From Chamaesiphon sp. (GTDB lineage: Bacteria > Cyanobacteriota > Cyanobacteriia > Cyanobacteriales > Chamaesiphonaceae): DNA of 64,000 nucleotides. Positions 18,322-39,132 of the stretch are shown here, piece by piece (within the stretch, counting starts at the first letter, position 1; the number at the start of each line of letters is the position of its first letter). The notes under the pieces were generated by a model. The model did no database searches. It was given only the letters and a program-made list of their open reading frames with translations, and was not told the DNA's origin. The DNA is taken from the NCBI GenBank assembly GCA_965246715.1, contig CBDFFH010000012.1, forward strand, positions 64,001 through 128,000. The letters are read 5' to 3'. A program made the translations under genes and the position numbers.

Positions 18322-19137
18322 TTGGGTGGACATTTGACTGTGATGGCGGTTAGTGGCTATTTATGGGCAATGAATCCATTGGCGATTCCGTGCCTAATCA
18401 TTTATGGATTTAGCTTGGCGGCAATGTTTGCCACTATGCATGAGTGCTGTCACCGAACAGCATTTGCGAATAATCAAGTTAACGATCTCGTGGCTTGGTG
18501 GGCGGGGGTACTATCTTTTTACAACGGTACCTTCTATCGTCGCTATCACAAATGGCATCATCGCTACACCCGCATTCCTGGTAAAGATCCAGAATTGACC
18601 GATCGCACCCCAGATAGTCTATTGAGCTATGGATTGGATTTGAGTGGTGTGTATTGGTGGTGGTGCAAATTGCGGGGGCATAGTCGAATTGCTTTGGGTA
18701 TTATCGATGAATGCGAATATATTCCCGAAACGGCGCGGGTGGAAACAATTCGATCGATTAGGTTACAGTTGTTGGTGTACGCCATCGCGATCGGGGTTTC
18801 TGTAGGATTTGCTCAACCTTGGTTCATTACCTATTGGCTCCTACCACCGATCGTCGGTCAACCAATCCTGCGCTTTATCCTCTTGGCAGAACATACTGGC
18901 TGTAGCCTGGATGATAATTCTTTGACCAATACGCGGACAACTCTCACCTTTGCACCGCTGCGCTTTTTGATGTGGAATATGCCATTCCATGCCGAGCATC
19001 ACTTGTATGCCTCGATTCCGTTCCATGCTTTGCCTGCGGCACACGAACGATTAAACAGTCATTTTACTAACGTCGATCCTGGCTATGTATCGGTCAATCT
19101 GGGTATTATTAGCCAATTGGAATCATTGTGGTATTGA
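18322..19137 (+). CDS. Fatty acid desaturase-family membrane diiron enzyme (probably 5'-truncated)
   Basis: His boxes HECCH, HKWHH, HAEHH; only a TTG start, with protein-like RSNLAGCLR continuing upstream to an in-frame stop at 18277. Confidence 0.8.
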   Translation: MGGHLTVMAVSGYLWAMNPLAIPCLIIYGFSLAAMFATMHECCHRTAFANNQVNDLVAWWAGVLSFYNGTFYRRYHKWHHRYTRIPGKDPELTDRTPDSLLSYGLDLSGVYWWWCKLRGHSRIALGIIDECEYIPETARVETIRSIRLQLLVYAIAIGVSVGFAQPWFITYWLLPPIVGQPILRFILLAEHTGCSLDDNSLTNTRTTLTFAPLRFLMWNMPFHAEHHLYASIPFHALPAAHERLNSHFTNVDPGYVSVNLGIISQLESLWY

Positions 19138-20171
19138 GTAATGCAAAATGTTTGACATTGCCAAACTTTGAGTTGCAATGTGGCGTAACCTTGCCCCAGG
19201 CTGAATTAGTCTATCAAACCTATGGCGAGCTGAATGTCGATCGATCGAATGTCATTATCTACCCGACTTCCTATGGTGCCCAACACACGGATATTGATTG
19301 GCTGATTCGACCCGACGGCATTCTCGATCCGACGAAATGGTTTATTATCATCCCCAATATGTTTGGCAATGGTCTCTCGACCTCACCCAGTAATAATCCG
19401 GCTTGTAGATTGGCCGAGCAGGGTTTTTGGTTTACACATGTAGATAATGTTCGCGCTCAGGCGCAGTTATTAACTCAGGTTTTTGGGATCGATCGATTGG
19501 CAGCGATCTATGGTTGGTCGATGGGAGCGCAGCAAGCATATCATTGGGGAGCGATGTTCCCCGTTGGCGGAGCCGCTGAGAATGAGATTCGAGTGGAACG
19601 GATTGTGGCATTGTGTGGCACGGCGAGAACTACCGACCACAATCGAATTTTTCTCGAAAGCCTACGTTGTGCCCTTACTGCCGATCGAACCTGGACGGGT
19701 CATGGGTTTGACGGGATACCAGAACAGGGCTTTCGGACATTTGCGAGGATCTACGCGAGTTGGGCGGCTTCTCAGGCATTTTATCGAGTAAAAATCTATC
19801 TCCAACTGGGCTATGCATCGCTGGATGATTATCTGTGGCGGGGTTGGGAAGTGGGCTACCGCAAGCGCGATCCGCATAATCTGGTAGCAATGCTGGATAC
19901 CTGGTTGCGCTGCGACATCAGCAATAATTCTATTTATCAAAGCGATATCGATCGAGCATTAGCCTCGATTACAGCCAAAACTCTGGTCATGCCCTCTGCA
20001 ACGGATCTATATTTCACGCCAGCAGACTGCGCTGCTGAAGCTGCGAAGATTCCCGCTGCTCGATATCTGCCCATCCCCTCGATCTGGGGACATCGGGCGG
20101 GCAATCCTTATCAAAATCCTGAAGATGCGGCTTTTATTCGCACTGCGGTGCAAGAGTTGCTAAGCGAATAA
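19128..20171 (+). CDS. Alpha/beta hydrolase, homoserine acetyltransferase (MetX)-like family
   Basis: YQTYGELN, NMFGNGLSTSP, GWSMGA nucleophile elbow, DLYF, WGH; GTG start overlaps the desaturase stop. Confidence 0.87.
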   Translation: MVLSNAKCLTLPNFELQCGVTLPQAELVYQTYGELNVDRSNVIIYPTSYGAQHTDIDWLIRPDGILDPTKWFIIIPNMFGNGLSTSPSNNPACRLAEQGFWFTHVDNVRAQAQLLTQVFGIDRLAAIYGWSMGAQQAYHWGAMFPVGGAAENEIRVERIVALCGTARTTDHNRIFLESLRCALTADRTWTGHGFDGIPEQGFRTFARIYASWAASQAFYRVKIYLQLGYASLDDYLWRGWEVGYRKRDPHNLVAMLDTWLRCDISNNSIYQSDIDRALASITAKTLVMPSATDLYFTPADCAAEAAKIPAARYLPIPSIWGHRAGNPYQNPEDAAFIRTAVQELLSE

Positions 20172-20186
20172 CTCGATCGACTGACT

Positions 20187-21038
20187 TTACTTGTTGGACG
20201 ATGGAGAAAGGGTTACACCTGTCGCGTAGGGACTAATTCCTTTTTCAGCAAGAGTTGCTTCGATCTCTAAGCGTTTGACTTTGAGCTGGTAATCCCGAAC
20301 TAGAGGATCGATTGCTTTGATGTTGATTGCTTCTGCTTCAAGTGTGGCTTTTTTTGCTTGGATTAGTTTGAGCTTAGATGCTTCGTTTGCGGTTGCTGCT
20401 TTAAGGGCAGATTGTTGTGCTAATTGGTCATTAAAGGATTTGCCGAAGTCTGCAATGCCAGTAATTCTCACCTCTTGAATACGAACCATTTTGCCATATT
20501 CTTTTTGGAGAGCTGCCTTTACTTTTTCCGCAACATCAGGGAGGTTAGAGTTGAAAGTTGCAGGATCTAAACCTGCACCAACTTGGATAATTGCATTTTG
20601 AGTCGAAGCATATAAGTTTTGAGATTTAAAATGCTCTTCATCAACTCTCAAGACTTTAGCAACTGTACCAATAGATTCTTGAGTTGGTTCAAATGTAATA
20701 ATCACCTGAATATTAATTGCACCTTTGATATTTTGGGCTGCGAAGTGAATTGATTGATCGATTTCTTTGCCCTGATCTGTTCTTGAAGAATAGTCTACTA
20801 ATTGTTGACCAGTTGAATAAATCAAAACTTTATCAAATGGGCCATAGTTAAATTTACCAGAATAAATATCTACTTTGTCTTTTTCCCCGCCCGAAGCATG
20901 ATAAACTGCTGCAACCTGTCCCGCACTAAGTGTTTCCCAGCTTGTAACTCCGAAAATCGCACCAGAGGAACAAGATGTTGAACTTGTCGCAACTGCTACA
21001 ACTAAAGTTAAAAAACCAATTTTTTTGAAATCAAACAT
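20187..21038 (-). CDS. SPFH/band-7-like putative lipoprotein with C-terminal coiled coil
   Basis: ATG at 21038, signal peptide ending in Cys, VRIQEVRITG strand then Ala/Lys-rich coiled coil. Confidence 0.6.
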   Translation of the reverse strand: MFDFKKIGFLTLVVAVATSSTSCSSGAIFGVTSWETLSAGQVAAVYHASGGEKDKVDIYSGKFNYGPFDKVLIYSTGQQLVDYSSRTDQGKEIDQSIHFAAQNIKGAINIQVIITFEPTQESIGTVAKVLRVDEEHFKSQNLYASTQNAIIQVGAGLDPATFNSNLPDVAEKVKAALQKEYGKMVRIQEVRITGIADFGKSFNDQLAQQSALKAATANEASKLKLIQAKKATLEAEAINIKAIDPLVRDYQLKVKRLEIEATLAEKGISPYATGVTLSPSSNK

Positions 21039-21444
21039 TTTTGTTCGTTCTTTGTAGATAATGTTGAAGTGATTCAAATGGAAAATTTGCACCAAAAATT
21101 AAGTCGTCACTACTATTTTTAAAAGCAAGCTCAATTGAACTTATCTGTTTTGACGTAAGATTTATAAAATAGATTGAATCGATCGATTCATATTCGACAT
21201 GATTACTAGCATCTATAAATTGCTTCAAATATATTTTTTTGCGTTTCCCAGTTTTCAATAATTTTAGCGACAAAAATACATCGCCAACAGGAATACCGAA
21301 CAATAAAGCAATTCTTCCAAAATCTATTATGGGTGCATACCATGTAGCACCATTAACAATATTATTAGGAAGACTAAAGCTACCGATAATTATTCCAAGT
21401 TGGATCGAGGCAATTATTGCCCAATTTTTAGGACTATGCTTCAT
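21031..21444 (-). CDS. Hypothetical small membrane protein (2 TM), coupled to the SPFH gene
   Basis: 137-aa ORF; its TGA overlaps the SPFH start region (ATGTTTGA). Confidence 0.65.
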   Translation of the reverse strand: MKHSPKNWAIIASIQLGIIIGSFSLPNNIVNGATWYAPIIDFGRIALLFGIPVGDVFLSLKLLKTGKRKKIYLKQFIDASNHVEYESIDSIYFINLTSKQISSIELAFKNSSDDLIFGANFPFESLQHYLQRTNKNV

Positions 21445-21714
21445 AGATATTTATCGTCAACGAAAGCACAGACAAATTGTATGTTGCATGTTATCTAAAT
21501 GATTTCCTCTGGTTTTGCTAACAATATTATTATGCCCAAAATCATTGAAAGATATCATCTATTTTATCTAAACAGCAATTGTGTAATATAGGATTGAGCC
21601 ACATAGCTCCGCTATCACTAAGCTAACCAGCTATACACGTCTCTAAATCACTTACCTGCTTAAAATCTCATTTCTTTGCCGTTTTATTCAAATCGTTTGA
21701 TTTCGATCGCTCGA

Positions 21715-21797
21715 GGTATCCGTTACTTTCTGACTTCCTGCACCGATCTATTTGGTACTCAACGCGCCAAGATGGTGCCAGCCCAAGCGCTCGATCT
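21715..21797 (+). repeat. Degenerate duplicate of the 5' end of the adjacent glnT/gmaS-like gene
   Basis: Aligns to ~22007-22090 (atccgttactttctga..caccgatctatttgg..gccaagatggtgccagccca). Confidence 0.85.
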
Positions 21798-21976
21798 CTA
21801 AATATCAAGCTACCACAGCAAATCTACATCGTACATCTCCAATATCCCATCTGCGTACACAGCACCATTCTAACATTCTTAACAGAGTAAGTATTTCAGT
21901 TCATAGCGATCGAATTAGATCGGCGCAGTCACTTATTCTAGAAATTTGACCCGATCGTCGTCTACACCCATCACCT

Positions 21977-22507
21977 ATGCTGCTATCTGAAATCGCTCGC
22001 GATCGCGGGATCCGTTACTTTCTGATTTCCTTCACCGATCTATTTGGCACCCAACGAGCCAAGATGGTGCCAGCCCAGGCGATCGATCTGATGGCAGTGG
22101 ATGGTGCGGGTTTTGCGGGTTTTGCTGCTTGGTTGGACATGACTCCCGCCGATCCCGATATTTTGGCGATGCCCGAGGCCAGTCAAATGATTCAATTGCC
22201 CTGGCAGCCGGATGTAGCTTGGTTGCCAGCGGATGTACTGACGATCGATAGACAACCGCTCAGACAAACACCTCGCTTAGTGCTCAAACGGGTGTTAGAG
22301 CAAGCCGCAGCACGGGGATATCGCGTGAACACAGGGGTAGAGTGCGAGTATTTTTTACTGAGTGCGGATGGGGAAAGGATTTTTGACGGGTTGGATCGAT
22401 CGAGTAAACCTTGCTACGACCAACAAGCATTGATGCGTCGCTTCGATATTATTGTGGGTAACTACATCCGATCGATTACTGCGTGCCTGTTCAATCTAAT
22501 TAATTAG
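21977..22507 (+). pseudogene. glnT: Truncated type III glutamate-ammonia ligase, GmaS-like (N-terminal ~160 aa only)
   Basis: GIRYFLISFTDLFG..RAKMVP, GAGFAGFAAWLD, QLPW, GVECEYF, KPCYDQ; similarity ends near 22455 and the C-terminal catalytic part is absent. Confidence 0.82.
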
Positions 22508-22605: not shown

Positions 22606-22884
22606 ATGCGTCTAATTGCTATCAAAAATCTCCGCAATGAGGCTAGTCGATATCCAGATGCAAAGAAAGCGATTGAAACTTGGTATCTGATTGTAAAGAG
22701 TGCTGATTGGTCTAGTTTAGAAGATGTCCGGCAAGTGTACCGAGATGCTGAATCTGCTGGTAATTTTACTGTTTTCAATATTAAAGACAATAATTATCGC
22801 TTGATTGTGGGAATTAATTATGTAAAAGGGCGAATCTATTTTAAGTACTTTTTGACTCACGCTGAATACGATAAGGATTTTTGA
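22606..22884 (+). CDS. higB: HigB family toxin
   Basis: MRLIA..., VFNIKDNNYRLI, FLTHAEYDK. Confidence 0.9.
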   Translation: MRLIAIKNLRNEASRYPDAKKAIETWYLIVKSADWSSLEDVRQVYRDAESAGNFTVFNIKDNNYRLIVGINYVKGRIYFKYFLTHAEYDKDF

Positions 22885-22888
22885 AAAA

Positions 22889-23293
22889 ATGACCCAAATT
22901 ATTGATTTGAAAGTGTACGGTCAACTCGTTGCCGAAGTAAGCCCAAAGGTAATTGAAACTGAGGATGAGTATGAGCAATTTCTAGCTGTGGCAGAAAGGC
23001 TGACTTTCAAGCAGGTTCAAACACCTGAAGAGTTGGCATTATATGATTTAGTAACGATGTTGGTGGAAACATACGAGGCGAAACATTACCCGATCGATCG
23101 ATCGTCGCCTGTGGAAGTTTTGGAGCATATCATTGAAGCTAGTGGGATCGATCGATCCGATCTATCTGAGATTTTTGGCTCTGGTGATGCTGTGGATCGA
23201 GTTTTGGCGGGACAGGAGTTAATTAATCCCAGTCAGGCGAATGCTTTGGCACACAGATTTAAGTTGTCTCCAGAGATATTCTTGAATACCTGA
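22889..23293 (+). CDS. higA: HigA family antitoxin (HTH)
   Basis: PKVIETEDEY, LVETYE, C-terminal HTH, directly downstream of higB. Confidence 0.88.
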   Translation: MTQIIDLKVYGQLVAEVSPKVIETEDEYEQFLAVAERLTFKQVQTPEELALYDLVTMLVETYEAKHYPIDRSSPVEVLEHIIEASGIDRSDLSEIFGSGDAVDRVLAGQELINPSQANALAHRFKLSPEIFLNT

Positions 23294-24013
23294 AACCATC
23301 CGATCGATTAAAGGTATTCAGCAAGTAAGATCGAGAAATACTATTATTAAGGTACTATAAAAAAATCTATCTATGGCTATTAACACGCTTCCAGAAATAG
23401 TCAATCTACTCAAGGATACACTTCTTGCTGATGCTCAGGTGATGGAGCTAGAAATTCCTGAATCAGAAGATCGAGCTTTTGCCATCCAAATCAATCCTGA
23501 CAATGGGTATGCTGCATGGGATTTAATGTATTGCCAGATTGCTATAACTGGAAGATATCCTGTTATCGTTCAAGCTGATAGTTACTATCCAGTGATGACT
23601 AATGATGGCAAGTATGAGATGTTATTGAAAAATTGGGAAGAGGGTACTAGAGATAGTGATTTTTTTAGTCGCACTTATTATGAAGAAGATCGAAATAGAG
23701 AAGGTGGCGTTGCACCCAATCAAATCATAGAGCGATCGAAATCATTTGACGTAGATAAGTATATTGAAGCAGAAGACGAAGAATTTTTATTATGGCAGTT
23801 TAACGAAGAAGAAATAGAAGATATATTAATAGGAGAGATTGAAAGTCTGGAAGAAAAATATGGTAAAGCACCAGAGATAGAAGAGATGCTAGCAGCACTT
23901 GGATTAACTGACAAAGAATTGGGTGTAACTATTACAGGGGAGGATATCCATGAAGAAAAACTTGAGAGGTGGCTATTTGAATGGGAATTAGCTAATGGAG
24001 ATTACGAAAAAGC

Positions 24014-24840
24014 GGCGTTGCTGGATTAGGATATGATCTAAGGCGATCGAGAGAAGTAACAAGAGCAAATATCTAAATGGAATGTCCTGAATGTAGATCG
24101 TCTAATATCAATAAAAATGGGCGAATAAAGGGAAAGCAGAACCATATTTGTAAAGACTGCGGACGGCAATTTATAGATTGTTATGAAGCACACAGAGGAT
24201 ATTCACCACAAATCAAGCAGAAATGTTTGTCAATGTATGTTAATGGGATGGGATTTCGAGCAATAGAAAGAGTAATGGGTGTGCATAATACAACTGTCAT
24301 GGATTGGGTGAAGCAAGTAGGGGGAAATCTCCCAGATTACTATAATTCAGACCAAATACCAGAAGTTGGTGAGTTGGATGAGTTAGAGACGTTTGTTGGC
24401 TCAAAAAAAACAAGATCTGGCTCTGGACGGCAGTAAATCACTTTCAGATGGGTATTTTAGGATGGGTATTAGGCGACCACAGTGCTAAGACATTTAGACC
24501 GCTATGGGAGAATTTGGTAAGTACATGGAAATGTTATTTTTATGTGACGGATGGGTGGAGGGTCTATCCAATATTTATTCCAGATGGTGACCAAATCGTG
24601 AGTAAAACTTATATGACAAGAGTTGAGGGTGAAAACACTAGGCTCAGACATTACTTAGCTCGATTAAAAAGAAAAACATTATGTTATTCTAAGTGCGAAC
24701 AAATGCTAAAGCATTCTATTAGATTGTTAATTCATTATCTTAAATTTGGTGAAGTACCAACTCCTAATTCAGTTAGTTCTGGCGATCGACGGCACAGATT
24801 ACCTCTCGATCGCCAAATCATATCTTAATCCAGCAACGCC
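24014..24840 (+). mobile_element. IS1-family insertion sequence, 827 bp
   Basis: TIRs ggcgttgctggatt(a)ggatatgat / atcatatcttaatccagcaacgcc; 8-bp target duplication GAAAAAGC at 24006 and 24841. Confidence 0.95.
24077..24828 (+). CDS. IS1 transposase InsAB via -1 programmed frameshift
   Basis: InsA CPEC..CKDC zinc finger and HTH; A8C slippery site at 24403-24411 leads into KNKIWLWTA..TDGW..VEGENTRLRH. Confidence 0.9.
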
Positions 24841-25424
24841 GAAAAAGCTAGTAGTTATGAAGGTACGATTTACGAAAGAGATTGGTTAGGTGGATATTAT
24901 CAACGTCATGGACTTCCTGATTATAGTGAATATGCAATTATTCTATTCCCAACTCAAAATAGTTGGGAAGTCTTAGCTTACATGCATTGGTATGGTTCTT
25001 CAGGATCGGGTAGCGATGGGGCGATCGCTTTTCTCAAGAGATGGCATGATAAATATCAGGCGGAACTAGTATGTCATTTCGGGACAGTATTAAATCTCAA
25101 TGTTGGCAAACTTCCACAAACACCAATGGAAGCATTCAATCTAATGGTCGAGCAATATACACTTTCCGACTATGCAATGCGTCATAATTTTAATATGAGA
25201 GAATATGCTCGCTATCTAATGAAAGTCGATTATTGGTACTTTCACGATCGACCGTAAATCTTCCAGTCTAAATTAATTTGTGAGTTTTGCAGTGACCACG
25301 AGCAAAACCATGCAGAGAAATAACTTCAGTCAATTATTGTCCGATCTCAATCGATCGTTGATTTGGGATGGTTCGATCTGTGGGATGCTTCGATCGATTG
25401 CCCAAAACTTGCCCAATCTAAATG

Positions 25425-26783
25425 CTAGAAAAACTTGAGATATCGCTGAATTTCCCAATCGGAGACGTGACTGTGATACTCTTCCCACTCCTGGGTTTTA
25501 AAGTCGATATAAGTTTTGTACATCAACGATCCCATCACCTTTTCACTGAGTGGATCGGCAGCAAAAGACTCGATCGCACCTTCCAGATTCCGGGGTAAAC
25601 AGCTAATCCCCATCTTTTGCAAATCTGCCACCGAATGCTTATACATATTCTCCGTATGTGGCTCACCCGGATCGAGTCCTTCCCGAATGCCTTCGAGTCC
25701 AGCGGCTAACAGCATTGCGGCTCCTAGATAGGGATTGCTGGCAATATCCGCCGCTCGGCACTCTACCCTGCCCCCGGGTAACGGAATTCTCAGCATATTG
25801 GTGCGATTGTTATTGCCATAGCAGATGTACACGGGTGCCCAAGTAAATCCTGACATACTGCCTCTGGCGATCAGCCGCTTGTAGCTGTTGACTGTCGGTG
25901 CGATCGTCGCACAAATTGCTGGAGCATGGCGCAAAATGCCCGCAATAAACTGGTAGCCTAATTTTGACAAGCCGCAACCGCGCGGATCTTCAGATTCCTC
26001 AAATAGATTCTTGCCCGTCTCAATGTCGGCGAGGGACATATTGTAGTGGGCACCACTGCCTGTGCGATTGGCAAAGGGTTTGGGCATAAAGGTGGCGAAA
26101 AAGCCGTGTTTGCGAGCAATTTCCTTGACCATCAGCCGAAAAAACACCAGTCGATCGGCCATTTTTAGCGCATCGCAGTAAGCGAAATCGGTTTCAAACT
26201 GACCGTTGCCGTCCTCATGGTCGAAGGAATACACATCCCAGCCCATCTGATTCATCGCTTCGACGATCTCCGTCACCCAGGTGTAGTTGTCGAGTAACCC
26301 TTGGATGTCATAACAGGGTTTATCTAGGACATCTCGATCGCTAATCGGGAGCGGTTTCCCTTCAGTAGTCTCCTTGAGCATAAAGAACTCAGTTTCAATC
26401 CCTAAATTGAACTGGAAGCCCATAGCAGCCGCTTCTGCCAGTACCTTTTTCAAAATGCCGCGACAGCAAGCATCAAACGGTTTGCCCTCCAAATAGAGAT
26501 CGCTAGCAAACCACACCACTTCAGGCTTCCAAGGTAAAACGGTGGCAGTAGCCGGATCGGGCATGGCGGCAACTTCTTCATCGCTGACATCTTGCGGCAC
26601 GCCGTCTAAGGCTGCGCCTGTGAACAGTTCCGAGCCTTGCATCATCTGTCCAAAATGTGACAAGGGCACTGCTTTGGCTTTACACATCCCATGTATATCG
26701 ACAAAGCTGGCTAGCGCATACTTGATGCCTTGTGCTTCGAGGGTAGATTTGAGCGATTGGAGTTCGGGTGAGAGTTGAGTCAC
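25425..26783 (-). CDS. glnT: Type III glutamate-ammonia ligase (GlnT/GS-like gamma-glutamyl ligase)
   Basis: GIETEFF, DHEDGNGQFE, FMPKP, GSGAH, NSYKRL, NNRT, ECRAAD...NPYL. Confidence 0.9.
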   Translation of the reverse strand: MTQLSPELQSLKSTLEAQGIKYALASFVDIHGMCKAKAVPLSHFGQMMQGSELFTGAALDGVPQDVSDEEVAAMPDPATATVLPWKPEVVWFASDLYLEGKPFDACCRGILKKVLAEAAAMGFQFNLGIETEFFMLKETTEGKPLPISDRDVLDKPCYDIQGLLDNYTWVTEIVEAMNQMGWDVYSFDHEDGNGQFETDFAYCDALKMADRLVFFRLMVKEIARKHGFFATFMPKPFANRTGSGAHYNMSLADIETGKNLFEESEDPRGCGLSKLGYQFIAGILRHAPAICATIAPTVNSYKRLIARGSMSGFTWAPVYICYGNNNRTNMLRIPLPGGRVECRAADIASNPYLGAAMLLAAGLEGIREGLDPGEPHTENMYKHSVADLQKMGISCLPRNLEGAIESFAADPLSEKVMGSLMYKTYIDFKTQEWEEYHSHVSDWEIQRYLKFF

Positions 26784-26800
26784 GATCGTGCCAATGATGA

Positions 26801-27826
26801 TTATAGTGATTTGACGATCGAATCGTCATAGAGCGATTCTGACTTGAGTGGTTGCGGAATAATCTTAAATTCTTCTGCCGCCTTAGCCGTCAGTTCGAGA
26901 TTGCCAATTAGACTCTTTGGATTGCTCTTGTCAAACGCCATCGCCTTATTGGTTGCCAGATCGAACACCTTGACACCCGACAACTGTTCCTTAACTTCAG
27001 CAACAGTTACGCCCATTTTTCCACTAGCAATTTTTAGGGCTTCTGGATCTCCAGCATTAACTAGTTTGACGGCTTTATCCACAGCGCGGAAGTAGGCTTG
27101 CAGGTCTTTTTGGCGAGTTTGGATGAATTTGTCTCGCACGACCAGCACATCTGCAACCAAGTTGGTACCCTTAGTCGAAAAGACAACATTGCCGCCACCT
27201 AGCTTGGCATTTTTAGTCAGAAAAGGTTCGTAGGTAACAGCTAAATCCACCTGCTTGGCAGCAAAAGCCGTAGCCGATTCTGCTGCTGTCATATCCTTAA
27301 CCTTGAGGTCGGCTTCTGTTAAACCAGCCTGTTTTAAATAAGCTTGGAGCAAGACTTTTGTAAACAGTAAGTTTTCCCTAGCGAGACTTTTACCTTTGGC
27401 ATCTTTAGGGGTTGCAATATTCTTACCGATAATCCCGTCGGCACCATCGGAATAATCCACGAGATAAACGATCTTCAGTGAGGGATCTTTTGCTGCTGCC
27501 TGAATTGCATCACCAGAAGTCAACCAGGCAATATCCAACTTCCCGGCTAACATCGCCGTGATTTCTTCAGTGGCACTTTGAAAAAATATTTCCTGAACAT
27601 TCAAGCCTTCTTTGGTAAATAACTCCTGTTTCGTCGCTACATAGTGGCTAGAGTAACCGACCCAGCTATTGAGTCCTGAGGCGATCGGTTGGGATGAAGC
27701 TGCTGGCGTGGAACTAGCACTAGGAGCGGTAGTGGTTGTATTCGGTTGCTGTGTACAAGCAATAGTTAAGGTGAAAGCAATCAAAGCTAAAAAAGTCCAG
27801 CGCAGCCAAGAAGATAGTTTGAGCAT
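26801..27826 (-). CDS. ABC transporter substrate-binding lipoprotein (NMT1/SsuA-like)
   Basis: Lipobox LTIAC; DYSDGADG, TYEPF motifs. Confidence 0.9.
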   Translation of the reverse strand: MLKLSSWLRWTFLALIAFTLTIACTQQPNTTTTAPSASSTPAASSQPIASGLNSWVGYSSHYVATKQELFTKEGLNVQEIFFQSATEEITAMLAGKLDIAWLTSGDAIQAAAKDPSLKIVYLVDYSDGADGIIGKNIATPKDAKGKSLARENLLFTKVLLQAYLKQAGLTEADLKVKDMTAAESATAFAAKQVDLAVTYEPFLTKNAKLGGGNVVFSTKGTNLVADVLVVRDKFIQTRQKDLQAYFRAVDKAVKLVNAGDPEALKIASGKMGVTVAEVKEQLSGVKVFDLATNKAMAFDKSNPKSLIGNLELTAKAAEEFKIIPQPLKSESLYDDSIVKSL

Positions 27827-27918
27827 GAAGATAGATAAATAATGGAGCAATTAAATAAATAAGATGCAGCTTAAATCCTGAAAATAGAGCTAAATACTGG
27901 ATCGATTTCAGTAATAAA

Positions 27919-28815
27919 TTAATGACGTACTTGGTCTGCCCAAGGTGTGAGTCTGCGGGATAACCATTTCAATCCATAGTCAATTGCTAAACCGATCGCA
28001 CCAATTAAGACAATACAAAATAGGACTTTATCAGTTTGTAAAAACCGTTGGGACTGGATAATCTTAAAACCCAGCCCATTTTGAGCAGCCAATAATTCGG
28101 CAATCACCACGAAGTTCCAAGCCCCAGAAATGTTCACGCGGAGCGTGTCGAGCACACTTGGAAAAGTAGCTGGTACAATCACCTTCCACAAAACATCCCA
28201 ACGACTGGCACCCATCGTATAGGCGACATTAATCATCTCGTTGGGAATGAACTTGACTGCATCAGCCACCATAATGATGTTGTAAAGCACTACTCCCAAA
28301 CTAATAATTAGAATTTTTGACGGTTCCCCCAATCCCACCCAGATGATAATCAGCGGTACAAAGCCCGTAATCGGCATATAGCGCACCGTGCCGACGATCG
28401 GCGAGAATAGGCTATCCATGCTGTAAAAAGTCCCGATCGCTAATCCCACGGGTACGCCAATTAAGGCCGCCAGCATAAAACCAGCAAACACCCGACCGCA
28501 ACTAGCTAACACATCTCCACCTAGGTCGTTTTCGGCGAACATGGTGAATCCGGCAGTTAGCACGGCTAAAGGAGTGGGTAAAAAAGTCGATGGCACGAGT
28601 TGGAGCGAACTGGCGATCGTCCACAGCGTCAGCGGTATGAGCAAAGACGAGGCTACAAGTAACACCGACAACCGTTTCGGAAATCCCTGGCGGATACTCC
28701 AAAAGATTGAAGGGGAAAGGTAGCGATGTTTGCGGGTCGGCGGTTTAGGAATAGGGACGGAAATGGATTCAATCACTACAATTAACTCTAATGAAGGACT
28801 TGTGGTTAGATGCAA
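27919..28815 (-). CDS. ABC transporter permease (SsuC/TauC-like)
   Basis: FLPTP, RYMP, EAA-like AYTMGAS, AELLAAQNGLG. Confidence 0.92.
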   Translation of the reverse strand: MHLTTSPSLELIVVIESISVPIPKPPTRKHRYLSPSIFWSIRQGFPKRLSVLLVASSLLIPLTLWTIASSLQLVPSTFLPTPLAVLTAGFTMFAENDLGGDVLASCGRVFAGFMLAALIGVPVGLAIGTFYSMDSLFSPIVGTVRYMPITGFVPLIIIWVGLGEPSKILIISLGVVLYNIIMVADAVKFIPNEMINVAYTMGASRWDVLWKVIVPATFPSVLDTLRVNISGAWNFVVIAELLAAQNGLGFKIIQSQRFLQTDKVLFCIVLIGAIGLAIDYGLKWLSRRLTPWADQVRH

Positions 28816-28881
28816 AATCGAGAACTGCTAATTTTTGTGAGGACATATAATAATATCTCAACTATTCAACTCGATATCCTT

Positions 28882-29658
28882 CTAAGATTTATGTTTGCGA
28901 TGAACTTCTTGTGGACATCCTGGCTGTCGGCGGCGATCGAGATATTCTCCTAAGATGTGCTGATACTTCTCTCGTCCAAAGGTTTGATAGTGTCCTGGAT
29001 AAACTATTTCAATCGGCAGCTTTTGCAGTCGTTCGTAAGTGCAGATATAGTCGGAAATATTGCTGCAATGCAGCTCGTCAAGCAATTCACCATCATAAAT
29101 TACGTCTCCAGAAAATAATGCTTGCGATCGATGGTCATATAGAGCGATACAACCCGTTGAATGTCCGGGTAAATGTAAGACTTCCAACACCCGATCGCCC
29201 AAATCTAATACGTCCCCATCTTGCAAAATTTGGGTAGGTTCGGCAGCTCGAAAAGTGTATTGTTCCACGCTAAAACCAGGATGAGGCACTCGATCGAAAT
29301 GGTCTGGATGAATCCAGCCTGGTTGAGCGCAGAGGGCTTCATGAGCATCTCCCTCCCGCAAGGCTTGCGCTTCTGCGGCATGGATGGCACGACGATCGAA
29401 TTCATGAATTCCCCCCGCATGGTCGAAATGGATATGGGAAGCGATCGCCAGTAATGGTTTATCGATTAATTCTGCGATATGTTCGCGCAGGCTGGCTACT
29501 CCCAAACCCGTATCCACCAACAAATCCCGATCGCGCCCTTTAATCAGCCACAGATTGGCGCGGTTGTACCAATAGTAATGAGGCTCGGTAATCAGATATA
29601 GTCCCTCTGCCATGCGTTGCGTTGCAAACCAACGATCGCAGACTTGTCTGGTTGCCAT
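28882..29658 (-). CDS. MBL-fold metallo-hydrolase
   Basis: LLVDTG, HIHFDHAGG, PGH, SGD, PGH; ATG at 29658 just after the ATPase stop with AGGAG upstream. Confidence 0.9.
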   Translation of the reverse strand: MATRQVCDRWFATQRMAEGLYLITEPHYYWYNRANLWLIKGRDRDLLVDTGLGVASLREHIAELIDKPLLAIASHIHFDHAGGIHEFDRRAIHAAEAQALREGDAHEALCAQPGWIHPDHFDRVPHPGFSVEQYTFRAAEPTQILQDGDVLDLGDRVLEVLHLPGHSTGCIALYDHRSQALFSGDVIYDGELLDELHCSNISDYICTYERLQKLPIEIVYPGHYQTFGREKYQHILGEYLDRRRQPGCPQEVHRKHKS

Positions 29659-29662
29659 CTCC

Positions 29663-30478
29663 TTACTCCTGGCGCATGACTTGCAGAACCTGTCGTTTAA
29701 TCTCGATAAACTCTGGTGACAACTTGATCTCAAGTTCGCGATGTTCGGGTAGATGGATGGGAATCTCGCTCTTAACCTGACCCGGACGACAACTCAATAC
29801 ATATATCCGTTGGGACAGATAGATAGCTTCCTCAACATCGTGAGTAATCATCAGTACCGTCACAGGGGTTTTCGACCAGAGTTCTAGTAAAAATTCTTGC
29901 ATCTGTTCTTTGGTTTGAGCGTCCAAGGCACCAAATGGTTCGTCCATCAATAGCACAGCAGGTTCGTTCGCTAAGGCTCTGGCGATCGCTACCCGCTGTT
30001 TCATCCCACCTGATAACTGCTTGGGATAACTATGGGCAAATTTTTCTAGCCCCACCACATTCAGGAAGTAACCAACCTTGTCCCGCCGATCTGCTTTAGA
30101 CATGTGCTGAAATTGCAACCCAAAGGCAATATTCTGGGCAACTGTCAACCAGGGATAGAGCGTATAACCTTGAAACACCATGCCGCGATCGGAACCAGGT
30201 TTACCCGTGACCGATCGACCATCAACTAATACCGCTCCAGATGAAGGTGGCGTAAGTCCAGCGATAATATTGAGCAAAGTTGATTTGCCACAACCAGATG
30301 CTCCGACTAGGCAAATAAATTCTCTGGGGAAGATTTCAAGATTGATATCTTGCAGCACTGTTAACTGCTGACTGTCTCGGATGAGATAGGATTTGGAAAG
30401 ATTCTCAACCGCTAGTTTTGGGGCTTGGCGATCGGGTAACTTGAGGGCAATATTTTGGGCGAGTGTGCTGCTGTTCAT
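29663..30478 (-). CDS. ABC transporter ATP-binding protein (SsuB/TauB/NrtD-like)
   Basis: GASGCGKST, LSGGMKQR, LLMDEPFGALD, ITHD. Confidence 0.95.
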   Translation of the reverse strand: MNSSTLAQNIALKLPDRQAPKLAVENLSKSYLIRDSQQLTVLQDINLEIFPREFICLVGASGCGKSTLLNIIAGLTPPSSGAVLVDGRSVTGKPGSDRGMVFQGYTLYPWLTVAQNIAFGLQFQHMSKADRRDKVGYFLNVVGLEKFAHSYPKQLSGGMKQRVAIARALANEPAVLLMDEPFGALDAQTKEQMQEFLLELWSKTPVTVLMITHDVEEAIYLSQRIYVLSCRPGQVKSEIPIHLPEHRELEIKLSPEFIEIKRQVLQVMRQE

Positions 30479-30731
30479 TGCTTATGGATAGTGATAAATC
30501 GCTAACGATTCAGAGCGTAAATGTATGTTTTCGAGAATTTCATAGATCGATCTAGGCTCTAGAATTCTTAGCCGCTCTGCACTCTGCTTTTAGTCGATCT
30601 ACTAACCTACAACTTATTAAATATCAGGATGGGGATCGCAAAATGTTCCGAACGAACAATGTTAGTGGCGAACACTCTCGATCGAGCTTTACCTGCTATT
30701 TTTTAAGACATCAATTTGCAGTTGTAAACGA

Positions 30732-31709
30732 TTGAAAATGTCACCTAGTAACAAAAACACTGCGGCAATTGCCTATACCTTCACTGCATATGTTCTCGGC
30801 ATTCTGTCGATCTGCTCTCCATCCTGGCAACTGAATGCACTTGGAGTAATCGCGATCGTCCATAGTTTAGTCACCGCCACCAATTTGGCGCACGAATTTA
30901 TTCACGGCAACATTTTCAAAGATCGCACAGCCAACGCTTGGTGGGGGCAGTTGATGACCCATCTGAATGGAGCTTGTTATGCTCCCTGGGAAAACTTGAC
31001 CGATTATCACCTCAACCATCATCTAGATCGGGCGGATGTGGTGAGATTGGATGCGATCGATTACATGAAACAGCTCCATCCCGTGCAGCGATCGATTTAT
31101 GTGGCGTTGGAGTGGTTGTACTTTCCCATCCTAGAGATGGATCTGCGCTGGCAGATTATTCTCGACCCCTGGCTGGATGAGAGCAAGCGATCGCGATTAG
31201 GCCGAAATTTGTTGCTCATCAGCTATCGGACTCTGGCCTTTAGTATCTTGGCCTGGATCTCGTGGCAGGCTGTTTTACTTTATTTTCTCGCCTATATTTC
31301 GTTTGTAAATGTGATGCGATTTGTGGATGCATTCCAGCACACTTATGAGTATGCGTTACCAGGACAGGAGTTAATTAAACGCGATCGTACATACGAGCAA
31401 GCCAACACTTTTTCTAACTTAGTATCCGTTCGATCTCCGTGGCTGAATTTGCTCTTGCTCAATTTTGGCTATCACAATGCCCATCACCACAACATGAGTT
31501 GTCCGTGGCACGATTTACCAGAATTACATAACAAGCTTTATGGGGATAGCGATCGCAATGTAATACCTCTATCTCAGCTAGTTTTCAACTATCATCGCTT
31601 TCGGATCGATCGATTATTTAATGGCCAAGGTGAGGTAAATACAGCAGCAGGCATCGATTTAAATAATTTTATTGGTGGTGTCACCGTTTCATTTTTGACT
31701 CCGCCATAA
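30732..31709 (+). CDS. Fatty acid desaturase-family membrane diiron enzyme
   Basis: His boxes HEFIH, HLNHH, HNAHH; divergent from the ABC operon. Confidence 0.87.
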   Translation: MKMSPSNKNTAAIAYTFTAYVLGILSICSPSWQLNALGVIAIVHSLVTATNLAHEFIHGNIFKDRTANAWWGQLMTHLNGACYAPWENLTDYHLNHHLDRADVVRLDAIDYMKQLHPVQRSIYVALEWLYFPILEMDLRWQIILDPWLDESKRSRLGRNLLLISYRTLAFSILAWISWQAVLLYFLAYISFVNVMRFVDAFQHTYEYALPGQELIKRDRTYEQANTFSNLVSVRSPWLNLLLLNFGYHNAHHHNMSCPWHDLPELHNKLYGDSDRNVIPLSQLVFNYHRFRIDRLFNGQGEVNTAAGIDLNNFIGGVTVSFLTPP

Positions 31710-31749
31710 TTTCAGCCGGAGGCTATTTCTTTCGCTCGACACAAGCTAA

Positions 31750-31842
31750 TTAATGTTAATTCTAGTTAAGGCTATTTGCTTCGTTCTAGTATCGCCAACG
31801 ATTTCAGTGTCTAGGCTCTTCATTATCCCGAACTGATGTTAA
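31750..31842. mobile_element. Internally deleted, inverted copy of the 15256-15434 MITE-like element
   Basis: Both ~45-bp arms align to the reverse complement of the 15.3-kb element; the central hairpins are missing. Confidence 0.7.
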
Positions 31843-34800
31843 TTAGGTTTCAATGCAATTAATACTTGTCCGGTAGACACCATTTGTCCTGGCTGACAAT
31901 AAACAGCCTCGATCGATCCCGCTTCATTAGCCTCGATCGTCATTTCCATTTTCATCGCTTCGAGGATGACTAGTCGATCTCCTGACTTCACCACATCGCC
32001 TGGTTTTACTAACACCTGCCACACATTTGCAGTTAAATGAGCATTAATTGGCGTACAGTTGGGCGGTAGATCTAGTTTTGGGGCGATCGGAGCGGGTTCT
32101 GGTTCGATCGATTGTCTGGTAAATTCTCCAGCAGCTTCCCAGGCAGTTCGTTCAGCTTGAAATGCGGCTTGTTGAGTATGTTTAAACTTCGCAATATCAG
32201 CGGCATTAGTGGTGAGAAATTGCTGGTATTCAGCTAGGCTAAATGTTGTTGCTTCAATCTTTAACTTCACCCGTCCATAAATCAGATCTTCGCGATATTG
32301 CAATAATTCGGCGGGAGAAACTGGGAAATATCTAATCCGATCGAAGAAGCGTAATAACCACGGTTTAGTAAAGTCCGCCGTCTGCCGATAACGATTCCAA
32401 ATCGGCACCGTGCGCCCGACAAATTGATAACCACCTGGCCCTTCCATGCCATAAATACACATATATGCACCACCGATACCGACGGCATTTTCTGGTGTCC
32501 AAGTGCGGGCGGGATTGTATTTCGTAGTAACTAGTCGGTGGCGCGGATCGATCGGAGTAGCGACTGGTGCGCCGAGATAAACATCGCCCAATCCCAACAC
32601 TAAATAGCTGGCAGCAAAGACAATTTGGCGGACGGCTGCGATCGAATCCAAGCCATTAATCCGGCGAATGAATTCGATATTGCTCGGACACCATGGGGCA
32701 TCGGCACGAACGGATTGGATGTATTTATCGATCGCTAGTTGGGTCGAATCATCATCCCAGGATAGGGGTAAATGCACGATCCGCGTGGGGATGGTTAACT
32801 GGTCGATACTTGGTAAATTTGCTCTAGCAATTGTTAACAGATCGAGTAATTCCTGTTCAGCTAAGACTCGACTATCGTAGTGAATTTGGAGCGATCGAAT
32901 GCCTGGAGTAAGATCGATAATTCCTTCAATGGGATTGGCTTTCAACCATTCCATTAAGGCGTAAATCTGAAATCGGAGATTCAGATCGAGAACTAATTCA
33001 CCATATTCAATTAAGAGATATTTATCACCCGATCGACGGTAGGTGGTGAGGTTGTCACTAAGAGGTAATTTATCTACTAATAATACTTGCTCTGGAGTAT
33101 CATCTCTTGCTTCAGATACGAGTGTGTCAATCTCCCGATCTTGGGCGAGTTCTAGGGCATTGGCACGCTCGATCGATATAGCTTGAAATCGAACTTTATC
33201 GCCTGGTTTGAGTTGACCAATTTTCCATAATTCCGCTTGAACGATTGTCGCGGGACAGACAAAACCGCCTAAACTAGGGCCATCGTGAGCGAGAATAATC
33301 GGCATATCGCCAGTAAAATCGACAGTCCCGATCGCGTAAGCATTATCATGGATATTCGAGGGATGTAATCCCGCCTCGCCGCCATCTGTCCTCGCCCAAA
33401 CTGGTTTGGGGCCGATCAGTCTAATGCCCGTCCGTGCTGAATTGTGATGAATTTCCCAATCGTTAGCGAAGAACATCTCAATATCTTCAGCTGTAAAGAA
33501 ATCCGGCGCACCGTGGGGGCCATAAATCACCCCAATTTCCCAGCGATCGGGATATACTGGAATCAGTTCAGGAGCTAGACTTTGAGGCGAAACCCTGCTA
33601 GCTGCAATCGCTCCATCCCCCCGCCTCTCCATCCCCCCATCTCCTGCAAAATGCAGCACATCCCCCGCACGTAAAATCCGCCCCCCGTGCCCGCCAAATT
33701 GACCGAGGGTAAAGGTGGATTTGCTACCCAAATAATCTGGAACATCGAAGCCGCCAGCAACGGTGAGATAGCTTCTATAGCCGTTTCCTTTAATGCTTGC
33801 TAGTTTTAATATGCTACCTTTTTTAACATTAATAACTGTCCACCACGGCACAGGTGCGCCGTCCAAGGTGGCTGACATCTGCGCTCCCGTCAGACAAATC
33901 GATCGATCGCAATTGAACCGGATTTTTGGCCCCGATACCGTACATTCCAAGCCAGCGGCATCTGGAGGGTTATTTAACAGTCGGTTCCCTAGCCTAAATG
34001 CGAGATGGTCGATCGGGCCAGATGGCGGTACGCCGACATCCCAGTAACCGATTCGCCCTGGATAATCTTGAATGGTGGTCTGGATGCCAGGATCGAGGAT
34101 ATCGATCGATCGCGGTTGATAATTGAGGGTATTTAAAAACTTTGTGTGGACTCTTCCGGCTTGATATTCGGGTTGAGAAATAGCTTGAAATAGGTAATCG
34201 AGATTGGTTTCAATTCCGGCGATCGCCGTGTTTTTTAGAGTAGTTTGAAGTTTGGCAATCGCACTTTCTCGATCGATGTCATGCACTAAGACCTTTGCTA
34301 ATAATGGGTCGTAATAAGGCGTGACTTCAGTGCCCGCTGCAATCCAACCATCGACACGTACATCATCAGGAAAATTTACAGCGGTTAATAATCCCGCACT
34401 CGGTTGGAAATTATGGTTAGGATCTTCGGCATAAATTCGGACTTGAATTGCATGTCCTTGGGGCTGATATTGGTAATTAGTTAAACCCAGATCTTCCCCC
34501 GCTGCTAATCGCACCATCCACTCCACTAAATCGATATTGCCGACTAATTCGGTCACGCCATGTTCGACTTGGAGGCGCGTATTTACCTCCAAAAAATAGA
34601 ACTCCTGACTATCGACATCGACGATAAATTCTACTGTACCAGCCGATCGATAGTTGACAGCTTTACCTAATTTCACAGCAGCAGCATAGAGTTGCGATCG
34701 CAAGTTATCATCGATACCTGGCGCGGGGGTTTCTTCGACTACTTTTTGATTCCGCCGTTGCAGCGAACAATCCCGTTCTCCCAAGGCAATGACATTGCCA

Positions 34801-35450
34801 TTACCATCACCAAAGATTTGGACTTCAATATGTCTAGCTCGATCGAGATAACGCTCCAAAAAAATCCCACCCTGACTAAAATTCTGCCTACTCAAGCGAT
34901 CGACTCGATCGAATGCTGCGGCTAAACTATCGGCATCGCGACAAATTTCCATCCCAATCCCGCCACCGCCAGCGGTACTTTTGAGCATGACTGGATAGCC
35001 AATCTGGGAGGCGATCGTTTCGGCTTGTGCTAGACTCTCCAGTAATTCACTACCAGTTAACATCGGAATGCCATTATCAGCCGCGATCGATCGGGCGGTA
35101 TGTTTGAGTCCAAATTGTTGTAATTGGGCTGGTGTCGGGCCGATAAAGGCGATCTGAGCGGCTTCACAAGCTACTGCAAACTTGGCATTCTCACTCAAGA
35201 AGCCATAGCCAGGATGGATGGCATCTACACCCATCTGTTGGGCGACTTCGAGAATGCGTACCCAGTTGAGATAACTTTCGGCAACAGGGGATGCGCCGAT
35301 ACAAATGGCTTCGGTGGCGAGGGTGGCAGCGGGGGTGTAGATGTCGGCTTCGGAATAGACGGCAACGGAAGGAATGTTGAGATGGTTGAGGGTGGTGAGG
35401 ATTCTCACCGCGATCTCGCCACGATTGGCAACTAGGATCTTTTTGAACAT
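31839..35450 (-). CDS. uca: Urea carboxylase family enzyme, probably guanidine carboxylase
   Basis: Biotin carboxylase domain ([21 protein letters not shown]), CT domain ([24 protein letters not shown]), biotinyl EAMKM. Confidence 0.95.
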
Positions 35451-37334: not shown

Positions 37335-37988
37335 CTACACATGATTTGGGGCATCCCAAATCACCAGGCGAATTGGCGTGGGATTATAGGCATTGCAGGG
37401 ATTATTTACCTGAGGACAATTGGAGATTAATACCATCACATCCATCTCCGCTTGTAGCTCGACAATTTTACCAGCTTCCGAAATACCATCCACAATTTCT
37501 AAACTACCATCAGCACTTACAGGCACATTCATATAGAAATTAATATTACTCACCAAATCTCGCTTATTCATCTCATACTTACTCAATTCTAGTAAGTAGT
37601 TTTCCACACAGGCATGGAGATGTTTTTTGTGCAATCCATACCGAACAGAATTACTCTCCATACTGCACGCACCGCCGACGGTATCGTGACGACCGCAGGT
37701 ATCATTAATCACGGTCATCATTACATTCCCTTCATTGGAAATAATTTTGGTGCCAGTAGTGATGAAGATATTACCTTGACGAACGATCGTGTCTGGCGCA
37801 CTATAACGCTCGGATGGATCGTGAGCGTTATAAAATAGGGTATCGACTGCTTGATTGCCTTGGAGATCGATAATGCGAAGAGTCTGCCCAACTTTGACGA
37901 CTCGCGACCAAGGTTGACGCGATGGAATTACTTCATCATAGATAGCATTAGCCGGATCGAGTGTTGGGTTGGAAATTGTAGAAACCAT
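37335..37988 (-). CDS. cgdB: Carboxyguanidine deiminase subunit B (urea carboxylase-associated, DUF1989)
   Basis: GNQAVD, DTCGRHDT.GGAC, INFYMNVP, SNCPQVNNPCN. Confidence 0.9.
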   Translation of the reverse strand: MVSTISNPTLDPANAIYDEVIPSRQPWSRVVKVGQTLRIIDLQGNQAVDTLFYNAHDPSERYSAPDTIVRQGNIFITTGTKIISNEGNVMMTVINDTCGRHDTVGGACSMESNSVRYGLHKKHLHACVENYLLELSKYEMNKRDLVSNINFYMNVPVSADGSLEIVDGISEAGKIVELQAEMDVMVLISNCPQVNNPCNAYNPTPIRLVIWDAPNHV

Positions 37989-38910: not shown

Positions 38911-38955
38911 TAAGCCGAGGAAATCCACAGCAAAGCTGAAGTGGTTCTCCCGGGC
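38911..38955 (-). terminator. Riboswitch expression-platform hairpin
   Basis: Minus strand GCCCGGGAGAACCAC..GTGGATTTCCTCGGC-TTA pairs the aptamer 3' tail; U tract is short. Confidence 0.6.
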
Positions 38956-39057
38956 TTTTATCCCGCCGTGTGACCGAATTAGTAGTGTCAATTCACTCCC
39001 AATCGGCGGCTTCTCTCGGACCAGTCATCGAAGATACTCGATCGGAACCCTAGAAGC
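38947..39057 (-). ncRNA. Guanidine-I (ykkC-yxkD) riboswitch aptamer
   Basis: Minus strand GCTTCTAGGGTTCCG..CTGGTCCGAGAGAAGC..ACACGGCGGGATAAAAGCCCGGGAG, upstream of cgdAB. Confidence 0.95.
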
Positions 39058-39090
39058 AATCCTGACTTGATATTTAGTTTAATGTCACAG

Positions 39091-39132
39091 ATCTTAGCAA
39101 CCCATGCTGGGATGAAAAGTATCTGACAATAC
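39091..39132 (-). promoter_or_regulatory. NtcA-activated promoter (GTA-N8-TAC-N22-TAN3T)
   Basis: GTATTGTCAGATAC (39132-39119), exactly 22 nt, then TAAGAT (39096-39091) preceded by TGn. Confidence 0.82.

Follow-up and report, generated by a model that had tools for sequence, protein, structure and literature searches.

A GmaS-like gamma-glutamyl-amide ligase in a Chamaesiphon transporter operon beside guanidine degradation genes

A 64,000-nucleotide stretch of the cyanobacterium Chamaesiphon sp. (contig CBDFFH010000012.1, positions 64,001 to 128,000; hereafter the window) carries five minus-strand genes for an ATP-binding cassette (ABC) ATPase, a metallo-beta-lactamase (MBL)-fold hydrolase, a permease, a substrate-binding protein (SBP) and a glutamine synthetase (GS)-like ligase, GlnT-B, as well as a divergent desaturase-like gene, DES1 (Table 1). 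The sequences and their genomic contexts point to a real, uncharacterised form of gamma-glutamylation catabolism tied to guanidine metabolism. A role in the use of guanidino compounds is likely, and we tentatively favour the idea, possible rather than probable, that the ligase glutamylates a guanidino compound itself as the front end of guanidine scavenging. In the genome analysed (G000, 6.1 Mb, 99.8% complete) the ligase is neither a housekeeping enzyme nor part of the N-methylglutamate pathway. A first-pass annotation of the same DNA had recognised the gene layout and a non-housekeeping ligase; it overlooked the guanidine context, the best indication of what class of substrate is involved.

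We compared the ligase with the known GS families. It scores 591.1 bits against TIGR03105 (type III glutamate-ammonia ligase, GlnT/GmaS-like; cut-off 469.6) and falls below the cut-offs for GlnA (TIGR00653, 345.1 against 429.15 bits) and for the gamma-glutamylputrescine synthetase PuuA (NF045547, 269.6 against 650 bits). Features of GlnN (GS type III, about 720 aa) were not found in this 452-aa protein, which has no match to PF12437 (GSIII_N). Its best PDB matches are methylamine ligases (9QUR, 424 bits; 7CQL, 339 bits), and type I GS reaches 265 bits. Two key catalytic residues of GS, Asp50' and the Glu-flap glutamate, are described as absent from GmaS in passages of PMC7948447. Asp50', which aligns with Asp53 of B. 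subtilis GS and Ala48 of RhGmaS, is Thr55 in the ligase, and the Glu-flap position holds Trp315, like the GmaS tryptophan. Together with the catalytic pair D188/E197 (RhGmaS D177/E186) this completes the GmaS-type signature. Both GS residues are missing in every aligned member of the clade to which the ligase belongs.

Five of the seven residues of the RhGmaS methylamine pocket are kept (K37, Y158, D188, E190 and E197, equivalent to K30', Y147, D177, E179 and E186), and the other two are changed, Q175 to S186 and N188 to D199. The S186/D199 pattern is found in 168 of 212 aligned sequences, some of whose loci repeat one genome; these sequences are the whole clade and include no GmaS-type rows, which have Q and N. 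It is tempting to compare the change at N188 with the Asn-to-Asp replacement in guanidine carboxylases, but Asp is found at this position in type I GS too, and the parallel was not used as support. All Glu, ATP and Mg ligands are kept except H237 (replaced by N), and W189 is replaced by F200. An AlphaFold model of the ligase had a pLDDT of 49 and was unusable. In a phylogeny, a check proposed at first pass, the 40 clade members form one group with 100% SH-aLRT support, apart from mgs-linked GmaS and from desaturase-hydrolase-linked glnT2, in a quick IQ-TREE search of 81 of the 212 rows without PDB GmaS, PuuA or GlnN sequences. The clade is 40-46% identical to GmaS-type rows. The mgs-linked GmaS of two cyanobacterial loci (L098, L099) belong to a separate clade with the Q/N pocket residues. 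At these loci an MmGMAS-type gmaS is flanked by mgsA/B-like and sarcosine-oxidase-like genes (labels assigned by eye from N-terminal sequence), which suggests that they hold a true N-methylglutamate pathway.

No glnA was found in the genome; its glnN is divided between the ends of two contigs (C29, C16). A strong match to the ligase occurs in five of 27 genomes of the genus. None of the 27 has a GlnA-level match, and GlnN appears to be the sole housekeeping GS. With GlnN present and the ligase missing from most genomes of the genus, we rejected a housekeeping role for the ligase. Neither mgsC nor the N-methylglutamate pathway (mgsABC) was found in the genome; a scan with PF01645 returned two large glutamate synthases, one fragment and two weak matches to FMN enzymes. 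The earlier view that this gene probably encodes a gamma-glutamyl-amine ligase and not a housekeeping GS is supported, the ligase being of the GmaS type, and we consider it very likely that the enzyme does not act on ammonia.

The genes on the other side of DES1 belong to guanidine metabolism. At a distance of 0.1-7.4 kb from DES1 there are a riboswitch, a deiminase pair which we take to be CgdA and CgdB, and an Asp-type carboxylase. At what is presumably the position of the Asp/Asn rule, this carboxylase has Asp in place of the Asn of the K. lactis urea carboxylase. According to passages of PMC12186494, Asp at the Asp/Asn position marks guanidine carboxylases. The riboswitch ahead of cgdA is the only one that nhmmer found in the genome, and it does not stand in front of the five-gene operon. 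Upstream of it sits a lone allophanate hydrolase C-terminal domain. No full AtzF over the cut-off was found in the genome and urease is present; allophanate may decay to urea for urease. An NtcA-type box (GTA-N8-TAC, 39119-39132) lies about 55 nt upstream of the riboswitch. Neither an arginase-family match to GdmH nor an MgdL-like gene was found in the genome.

Table 1. Features of the operon and of the adjoining guanidine genes (positions in the window).
Feature	Position	Strand	Family match and remarks
ABC ATPase, first operon gene	29663-30478	-	PF00005
MBL-fold metallo-hydrolase, MBLAC2 family, 258 aa	28882-29658	-	PF00753; ATG preceded by AGGAG site
ABC permease, TauC/SsuC-like	27919-28815	-	PF00528; NCBIfam matches below cut-off; start codon uncertain
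NMT1-family lipoprotein SBP	26801-27826 (ATG start) or 27850	-	PF09084
GmaS-like gamma-glutamyl-amide ligase (GlnT-B), 452 aa	25425-26783	-	TIGR03105, 591 bits
DES1, membrane di-iron desaturase/hydroxylase-family protein	30732-31709	+	PF00487, 97.8 bits; three His boxes
Inverted repeat TGTTC-N5-GAACA and second degenerate copy, candidate operator between ATPase and DES1	30644-30674		conserved
Urea/guanidine carboxylase, predicted guanidine carboxylase	31839-35450	-	TIGR02712, 1829 bits; alignment to 3VA7
cgdB	37335-37988	-	carboxyguanidine deiminase pair with cgdA
cgdA	38129-38857	-	carboxyguanidine deiminase pair with cgdB; TIGR03425 and TIGR03424 over cut-off for the pair
Guanidine-I riboswitch ahead of cgdA	38945-39064	-	RF00442, 79.4 bits
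Stand-alone allophanate hydrolase C-terminal domain	39206-39631	-	PF21986

The ligase accompanies guanidine routes across genomes as well. GdmH (30) or CgdB (21) was present in all 50 ligase genomes checked, a check that covered 50 of 70 candidate loci. In an evenly drawn sample of 201 cyanobacterial genomes the ligase occurs in 44, and a guanidine route (GdmH or CgdB) was found in 43 of these 44 compared to 82 of the 157 genomes without ligase. A family-stratified expectation of 36.4 stands against the 43 observed (P ~4e-5, still overstated by kinship). The GdmH and CgdB routes are mutually exclusive, occurring together in one of 125 genomes. The ligase accompanies both and therefore behaves as an accessory to either route, not as a third alternative. 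In the same sample the guanidine route was present in 29/29 MBL and 28/28 DES1 genomes, counts that are inflated by kinship, and in 8/8 genomes with an L035-type Rieske enzyme; the ligase was present in 23, 18 and 8 of these, respectively. Thus, Rieske implies ligase, not the reverse.

We analyzed 80 genome loci of ligase relatives (73-88% identical, one at 71%; many loci are short). A riboswitch motif was found in 43 of the 80 and in 29 of the 43 loci of at least 15 kb, and Rfam confirmed the riboswitch at six of seven loci tested. The motif lies directly upstream of the ligase (<330 nt) in 15 of the 80, which are mostly Nodosilinea-type and not independent. The ligase is also embedded as gdmH-hypA-[ligase]-hypB-gimABC and elsewhere stands ahead of cgdAB-gca-atzF. 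Its partners within 10 kb are Rieske (20 of 80 loci), isochorismatase (15), creatininase-like (14), MBL (12), MgdL-like (12), GdmH (10), glutamine amidotransferase (10), CgdB (6) and DES1 (5) genes. All 12 MgdL-like ligase loci also hold a Rieske gene; MgdL likeness was judged by eye from motifs, including the catalytic D-x-R, against the alignment in PMC12508155. One genome (G596) has only ATPase, SBP and ligase at its locus, and MBL and DES1 are often encoded at other places in the genome. The system is modular, and its partners swap between genomes. The claim that transporter, hydrolase and ligase act on one substrate is hence only partly supported: MBL is within 10 kb of the ligase in just those 12 loci, 21 of the 44 ligase genomes have no MBL, and six of the 29 MBL genomes have no ligase.

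Two loci (L021, L024) combine DES1, a creatininase, an isochorismatase, an MgdL-like lyase, two Rieske enzymes, a creatininase-like gene, the ligase and an SDR gene, a candidate creatinine-to-guanidine pathway as judged from gene content; the creatininase of L021 is over its cut-off. Two or three distinct GS-like ligases occur with a glutamine amidotransferase and aldehyde and iron alcohol dehydrogenases in L067, L070-L075 and L078-L080, and a DUF1989-containing fusion of about 620 aa is found in L027 and L079. In other genomes (L246, L245, L248, L253 and L257) the neighbours of DES1 relatives include gdmH accessory genes, an FAD oxidase, a cyanase-like gene and a creatininase.

The five-gene order, the short gaps and the divergent desaturase-like gene seen at first pass are borne out by open reading frames (ORFs), families and coordinates. 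From ATPase to ligase the gaps measure 4, 66, 68 and 17 nt, the third being 92 nt if the SBP starts at the ATG at 27826, and DES1 lies 253 nt from the ATPase. Judged from this spacing, the five genes are probably co-transcribed. None of the five minus-strand ORFs has an internal stop, and the ratio of nonsynonymous to synonymous substitution rates (dN/dS) relative to the related locus L121 is 0.03-0.14 for all six genes (dS 0.48-0.80). All six are therefore maintained under purifying selection. L010 and L017 have the same ATPase-MBL-permease-SBP-ligase order. The hydrolase lies within the transporter genes here and in the genus; other cyanobacteria shuffle the gene order, so this is a genus-level arrangement and not a fixed one. 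The operon had also been called the intact core of a system, which is not supported. L120 and L121, whose ligases are 96% identical to that of the window, show the operon order with two additions, an IS-sized ORF and a Rieske gene, the latter between SBP and ligase, and have an isochorismatase downstream. At this site about 1.3 kb is cleanly absent from the window, and no close match to either enzyme was found elsewhere in the genome, where the best Rieske match is 30% identical. An aniline-dioxygenase-type set (ligase, glutamine amidotransferase (GAT)-like hydrolase and Rieske) was not found, as the window cluster has no Rieske or GAT.

The SBP may bind a guanidino ligand. The guanidinium cage of GimA consists of W59, W62, D135, F205 and D233 (passages of PMC12704784). 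Mapped via GimA-type orthologues, with spacing that matches the numbering of those passages, the SBP has W63, Y66, D138, Y207 and D234 at these positions. The residues are of the same kind, with two aromatic swaps, including W62 to Y, and the SBP is 26-30% identical to GimA-type proteins; it would be a candidate guanidinium binder.

The hydrolase is 42% identical over 246 residues to a bird MBLAC2 (277 aa; retrieved from 1.84 billion representatives). Its predicted metal ligands H75, H77, D79, H80, H166, D185 and H223 are conserved in 37 aligned relatives and are counterparts of the seven zinc ligands of MBLAC2 in the section of PMC7949124 that lists them; full-length similarity and zinc ligands thus place it in the MBLAC2 family. 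Its best PDB sequence match is weak (E 4.5e-11), an AlphaFold-type model (pLDDT 63) retrieved generic MBL folds only in a fold search (16-22% identity), and the ESM Atlas returned generic MBL clusters only. A class B beta-lactamase was not indicated: every NCBIfam bla model scored far below its cut-off, and no signal peptide was seen in the sequence. Passages of PMC7949124 describe MBLAC2 as an acyl-CoA thioesterase in vitro, and PMC12186257 refers to it as an off-target of drugs that inhibit histone deacetylases. In contrast to vertebrate MBLAC2, the bacterial gene stands in nitrogen-scavenging clusters, and longer relatives are fused to NCS1 nucleobase permeases (five of nine matches). In P0002-P0007 and P0269 a hydrolase of the MBLAC2 family is joined to an NCS1 permease or a nitronate monooxygenase, and Cyanophora paradoxa has a homologue 47% identical to the hydrolase of the window. 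A 721-aa MBL-ligase ORF in L008 was rejected as a fusion, as the near-identical L124 has TAG where L008 has TGG, a one-base stop loss; no such fusion was among the nine matches of the search for longer proteins.

How might these parts work together? In the mechanism that we tentatively favour, modelled in its ligase, oxygenase and reversing-hydrolase steps on aniline and naphthylamine degradation as outlined in passages of PMC11335346, the ABC importer would take up a substituted guanidine, e.g. methylguanidine or a creatine-type guanidino acid, and the ligase would convert it with ATP and glutamate to a gamma-glutamyl-guanidine (acylguanidine). An oxygenase would then hydroxylate the carbon attached to the guanidino nitrogen, giving a hemiaminal that would fall apart. 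In relatives this step would fall to Rieske and MgdL-like lyase; in G000 only DES1 is left, a candidate for the oxygenase of the module by its family. The MBLAC2-like hydrolase, or in relatives a creatininase-, isochorismatase- or alpha/beta-hydrolase, would remove the glutamate, and the guanidine would pass to Gca, CgdAB and urease. The full chemical proposal, a GS-fold clade that acylates the guanidino nitrogen with gamma-glutamyl-guanidines as carriers and a bacterial MBLAC2 homologue as the matching acyl-guanidine hydrolase, is doubtful as a whole.

A number of observations weigh against glutamylation of the guanidino group. Guanidinium is a poor nucleophile. S186, D199 and F200 resemble type I GS (HEIDF), and because type I GS has a small residue and Asp at the first two positions, the changes may be ancestral rather than an adaptation to guanidinium. 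No riboswitch was found in the operon leader (30479-30731), and the riboswitch motif occurs in only 12 of 80 metagenome loci. The same transporter, MBL and DES1 occur without ligase in G011 and G277, and several minimal operons (L044, L199) have no oxygenase or hydrolase. Neither DES1 nor an L035-type Rieske was present in 26 of the 44 ligase genomes, more distant Rieskes not being counted. In L179, L182, L184 and L193 the ligase clade has an Amt-family channel and mgsC-like genes as neighbours, and the riboswitch motif is absent. Finally, passages of PMC12508155 describe MgdL as narrow for free N-(hydroxymethyl)guanidine and report that in V. boliviensis MgdH and MgdL on their own demethylate methylguanidine. 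In the V. boliviensis proteome supplement no entry with the name Rieske or glutamylmethylamide synthetase was found (two of five 'glutamine synthetase' places covered), and creatininase is not induced.

The main rival, which we regard as somewhat unlikely, is that the ligase traps a small amine released by the breakdown of substituted guanidines, such as methylamine, dimethylamine, hydroxylamine or hydrazine. With a Rieske or desaturase-like oxygenase, gamma-glutamyl-methylamide would undergo N-demethylation, yielding glutamine and formaldehyde; elsewhere the ligation would serve detoxification. The nearest characterised relatives of the ligase are methylamine ligases, most of the RhGmaS pocket is kept, and RhGmaS accepts such amines (passages of PMC7948447). 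The four loci with Amt and mgsC-like genes fit this reading, as does the GbcA-like Rieske partner, and passages of PMC12623156 report hydrolysis of methylguanidine to urea and methylamine. However, mgsC and a GdmH match were both not found in G000, and mgs-linked GmaS falls in its own clade with the Q/N pocket. Moreover, GdmH is described, in the passages that deal with it, as highly specific for free guanidine, so that an amine source is not evident in operons with gdmH only.

It is unlikely that the genes form a loose nitrogen-scavenging toolkit, co-regulated but directed at different compounds, with a ligase amine unrelated to guanidine. Such a toolkit would match the swapped and shuffled partners, the scarcity of MBL beside the ligase and the joint presence of MBL and DES1 in only 12 of the 44 ligase genomes, often elsewhere in the genome. 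The glutamine amidotransferase that accompanies the ligase in ten loci is PuuD-like, and several of these loci have aldehyde/alcohol dehydrogenases and no riboswitch motif. Yet in 15 loci the gene that first follows the riboswitch is the ligase, the ligase is also embedded between hypA and hypB, and every MBL and DES1 genome of the sample has a guanidine route, a pattern inflated by kinship.

An auxiliary GS that recaptures ammonia from guanidine breakdown is improbable. It would account for the minimal operons devoted to uptake and degradation (L044, L199) and for the dependence on either guanidine route, the GS-I-like D199 and F200 are kept, and RhGmaS accepts ammonium at high Km (passages of PMC7948447). 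Nevertheless, Asp50' and the Glu-flap glutamate are absent throughout the aligned clade, and GlnN is present in G000. Very improbable is a decaying remnant whose pathway this strain no longer completes: close relatives have a Rieske enzyme and an isochorismatase that are missing here, the adjacent desaturase-hydrolase-glnT2 module is broken without its GntR regulator being found, and an insertion sequence (IS) of the IS1 family lies 0.6 kb downstream of the operon, but the six genes are all intact and evolve under purifying selection, and L010 and L017 share the Rieske-free order.

That module (18322-22507) comprises a desaturase-like gene, a MetX-like PRK07581 hydrolase and an RhGmaS-type glnT2. 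It is in decay, with a glnT2 that ends at residue 168 of about 440 and a desaturase that has lost its first 30 or so codons. The GntR regulator is present in L017 and G596 and was not found in G000. Intact desaturase-hydrolase-glnT2 modules occur across cyanobacteria, and our literature search gave no paper on them. A HigB-type toxin gene and its likely antitoxin adjoin the broken glnT2 (22606-23293). Between these genes and the operon, a DUF4253 gene (23373-25257) is interrupted by the IS1-family element (24014-24840), which has high depth in two runs; in a related strain 23286 is joined to 25391, without the DUF4253/IS1 block.

With respect to regulation, the promoter and terminator scan remained at chance level, with three terminator-like matches in 25200-32000, below the shuffle mean of 6.1. 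The inverted repeat between ATPase and DES1 is a candidate operator. Its GAACATTT half is kept upstream of the ATPase in all five aligned sequences, and exact TGTTC-N5-GAACA sites number three in the 6.1-Mb genome. No canonical NtcA box was found upstream of the ATPase, and the repeat is not a canonical NtcA site either.

The study of guanidine metabolism is young, and its known steps have largely come to light through riboswitch-linked genes. The ligase clade, present in 44 of 201 sampled cyanobacterial genomes and in non-cyanobacterial loci, often comes first after the riboswitch and carries the annotation glutamine synthetase. Its reaction would be either new GS-fold chemistry, the formation of N-acyl-guanidines, or a new fate of methylated amines in cyanobacteria without the N-methylglutamate pathway. 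Matches to TIGR03105 or gmaS are unsafe markers of methylamine use. The operon also supplies a genetic context for the MBLAC2 homologue; if the acyl-guanidine proposal were true, it would suggest amides or acyl-guanidines as the substrate class of vertebrate MBLAC2. We found no paper tying a GlnT/GmaS-like ligase to guanidine operons in a literature search that mostly did not cover subscription journals, and searches within PMC12704784, PMC12623156, PMC12186494 and PMC12508155 gave no passage on the link. A preprint on picocyanobacteria (10.1101/2022.08.17.504260) notes, in the relevant passage, an extra Rieske gene and not the ligase.

Among known systems, GmaS (RhGmaS 7CQL, MmGMAS 9QUR and rhizobial GlnT) is closest to the ligase, sharing its fold, the TIGR03105 assignment, the missing Asp50', the Glu-flap Trp, the equivalents of K30', Y147, D177, E179 and E186, and all Glu and Mg ligands. 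Unlike GmaS, the ligase belongs to a separate clade (Q175 to S, N188 to D, W189 to F, H237 to N), has no mgsC found in its genome and stands, in cyanobacteria, in a guanidine rather than an N-methylglutamate context. The aniline and 1-naphthylamine systems AtdA1-A5 and NpaA1-A5, as presented in passages of PMC11335346, likewise combine a GS-like ligase, an oxygenase and a hydrolase that reverses the ligation, and in relatives a Rieske gene adjoins the ligase. However, our ligase resembles GmaS far more than it does the GS-like entry 8WWU (E 1e-41), the hydrolase is of the MBL, creatininase, isochorismatase or alpha/beta fold, an ABC importer is present and the window has no Rieske. With gdmH-ghaAB-gimABC of Synechocystis (passages of PMC12704784) and with gca-cgdAB-atzF the window shares the guanidine-I riboswitch, an NMT1-family importer with a GimA-like cage and, adjoining the operon, the Asp-type carboxylase and CgdAB, whereas no ligase, MBL or desaturase appears in the passages on those loci. 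The MgdH/MgdL system of Vreelandella boliviensis, in the passages of PMC12508155 devoted to it, is a front end of the type proposed here, converting a substituted guanidine to guanidine for the carboxylase, and MgdL-like genes, recognised by eye, accompany the ligase in 12 of 80 loci. MgdH/MgdL, however, uses a 2-oxoglutarate dioxygenase and involves no glutamylation, and no MgdL-like gene was found in the genome of the window.

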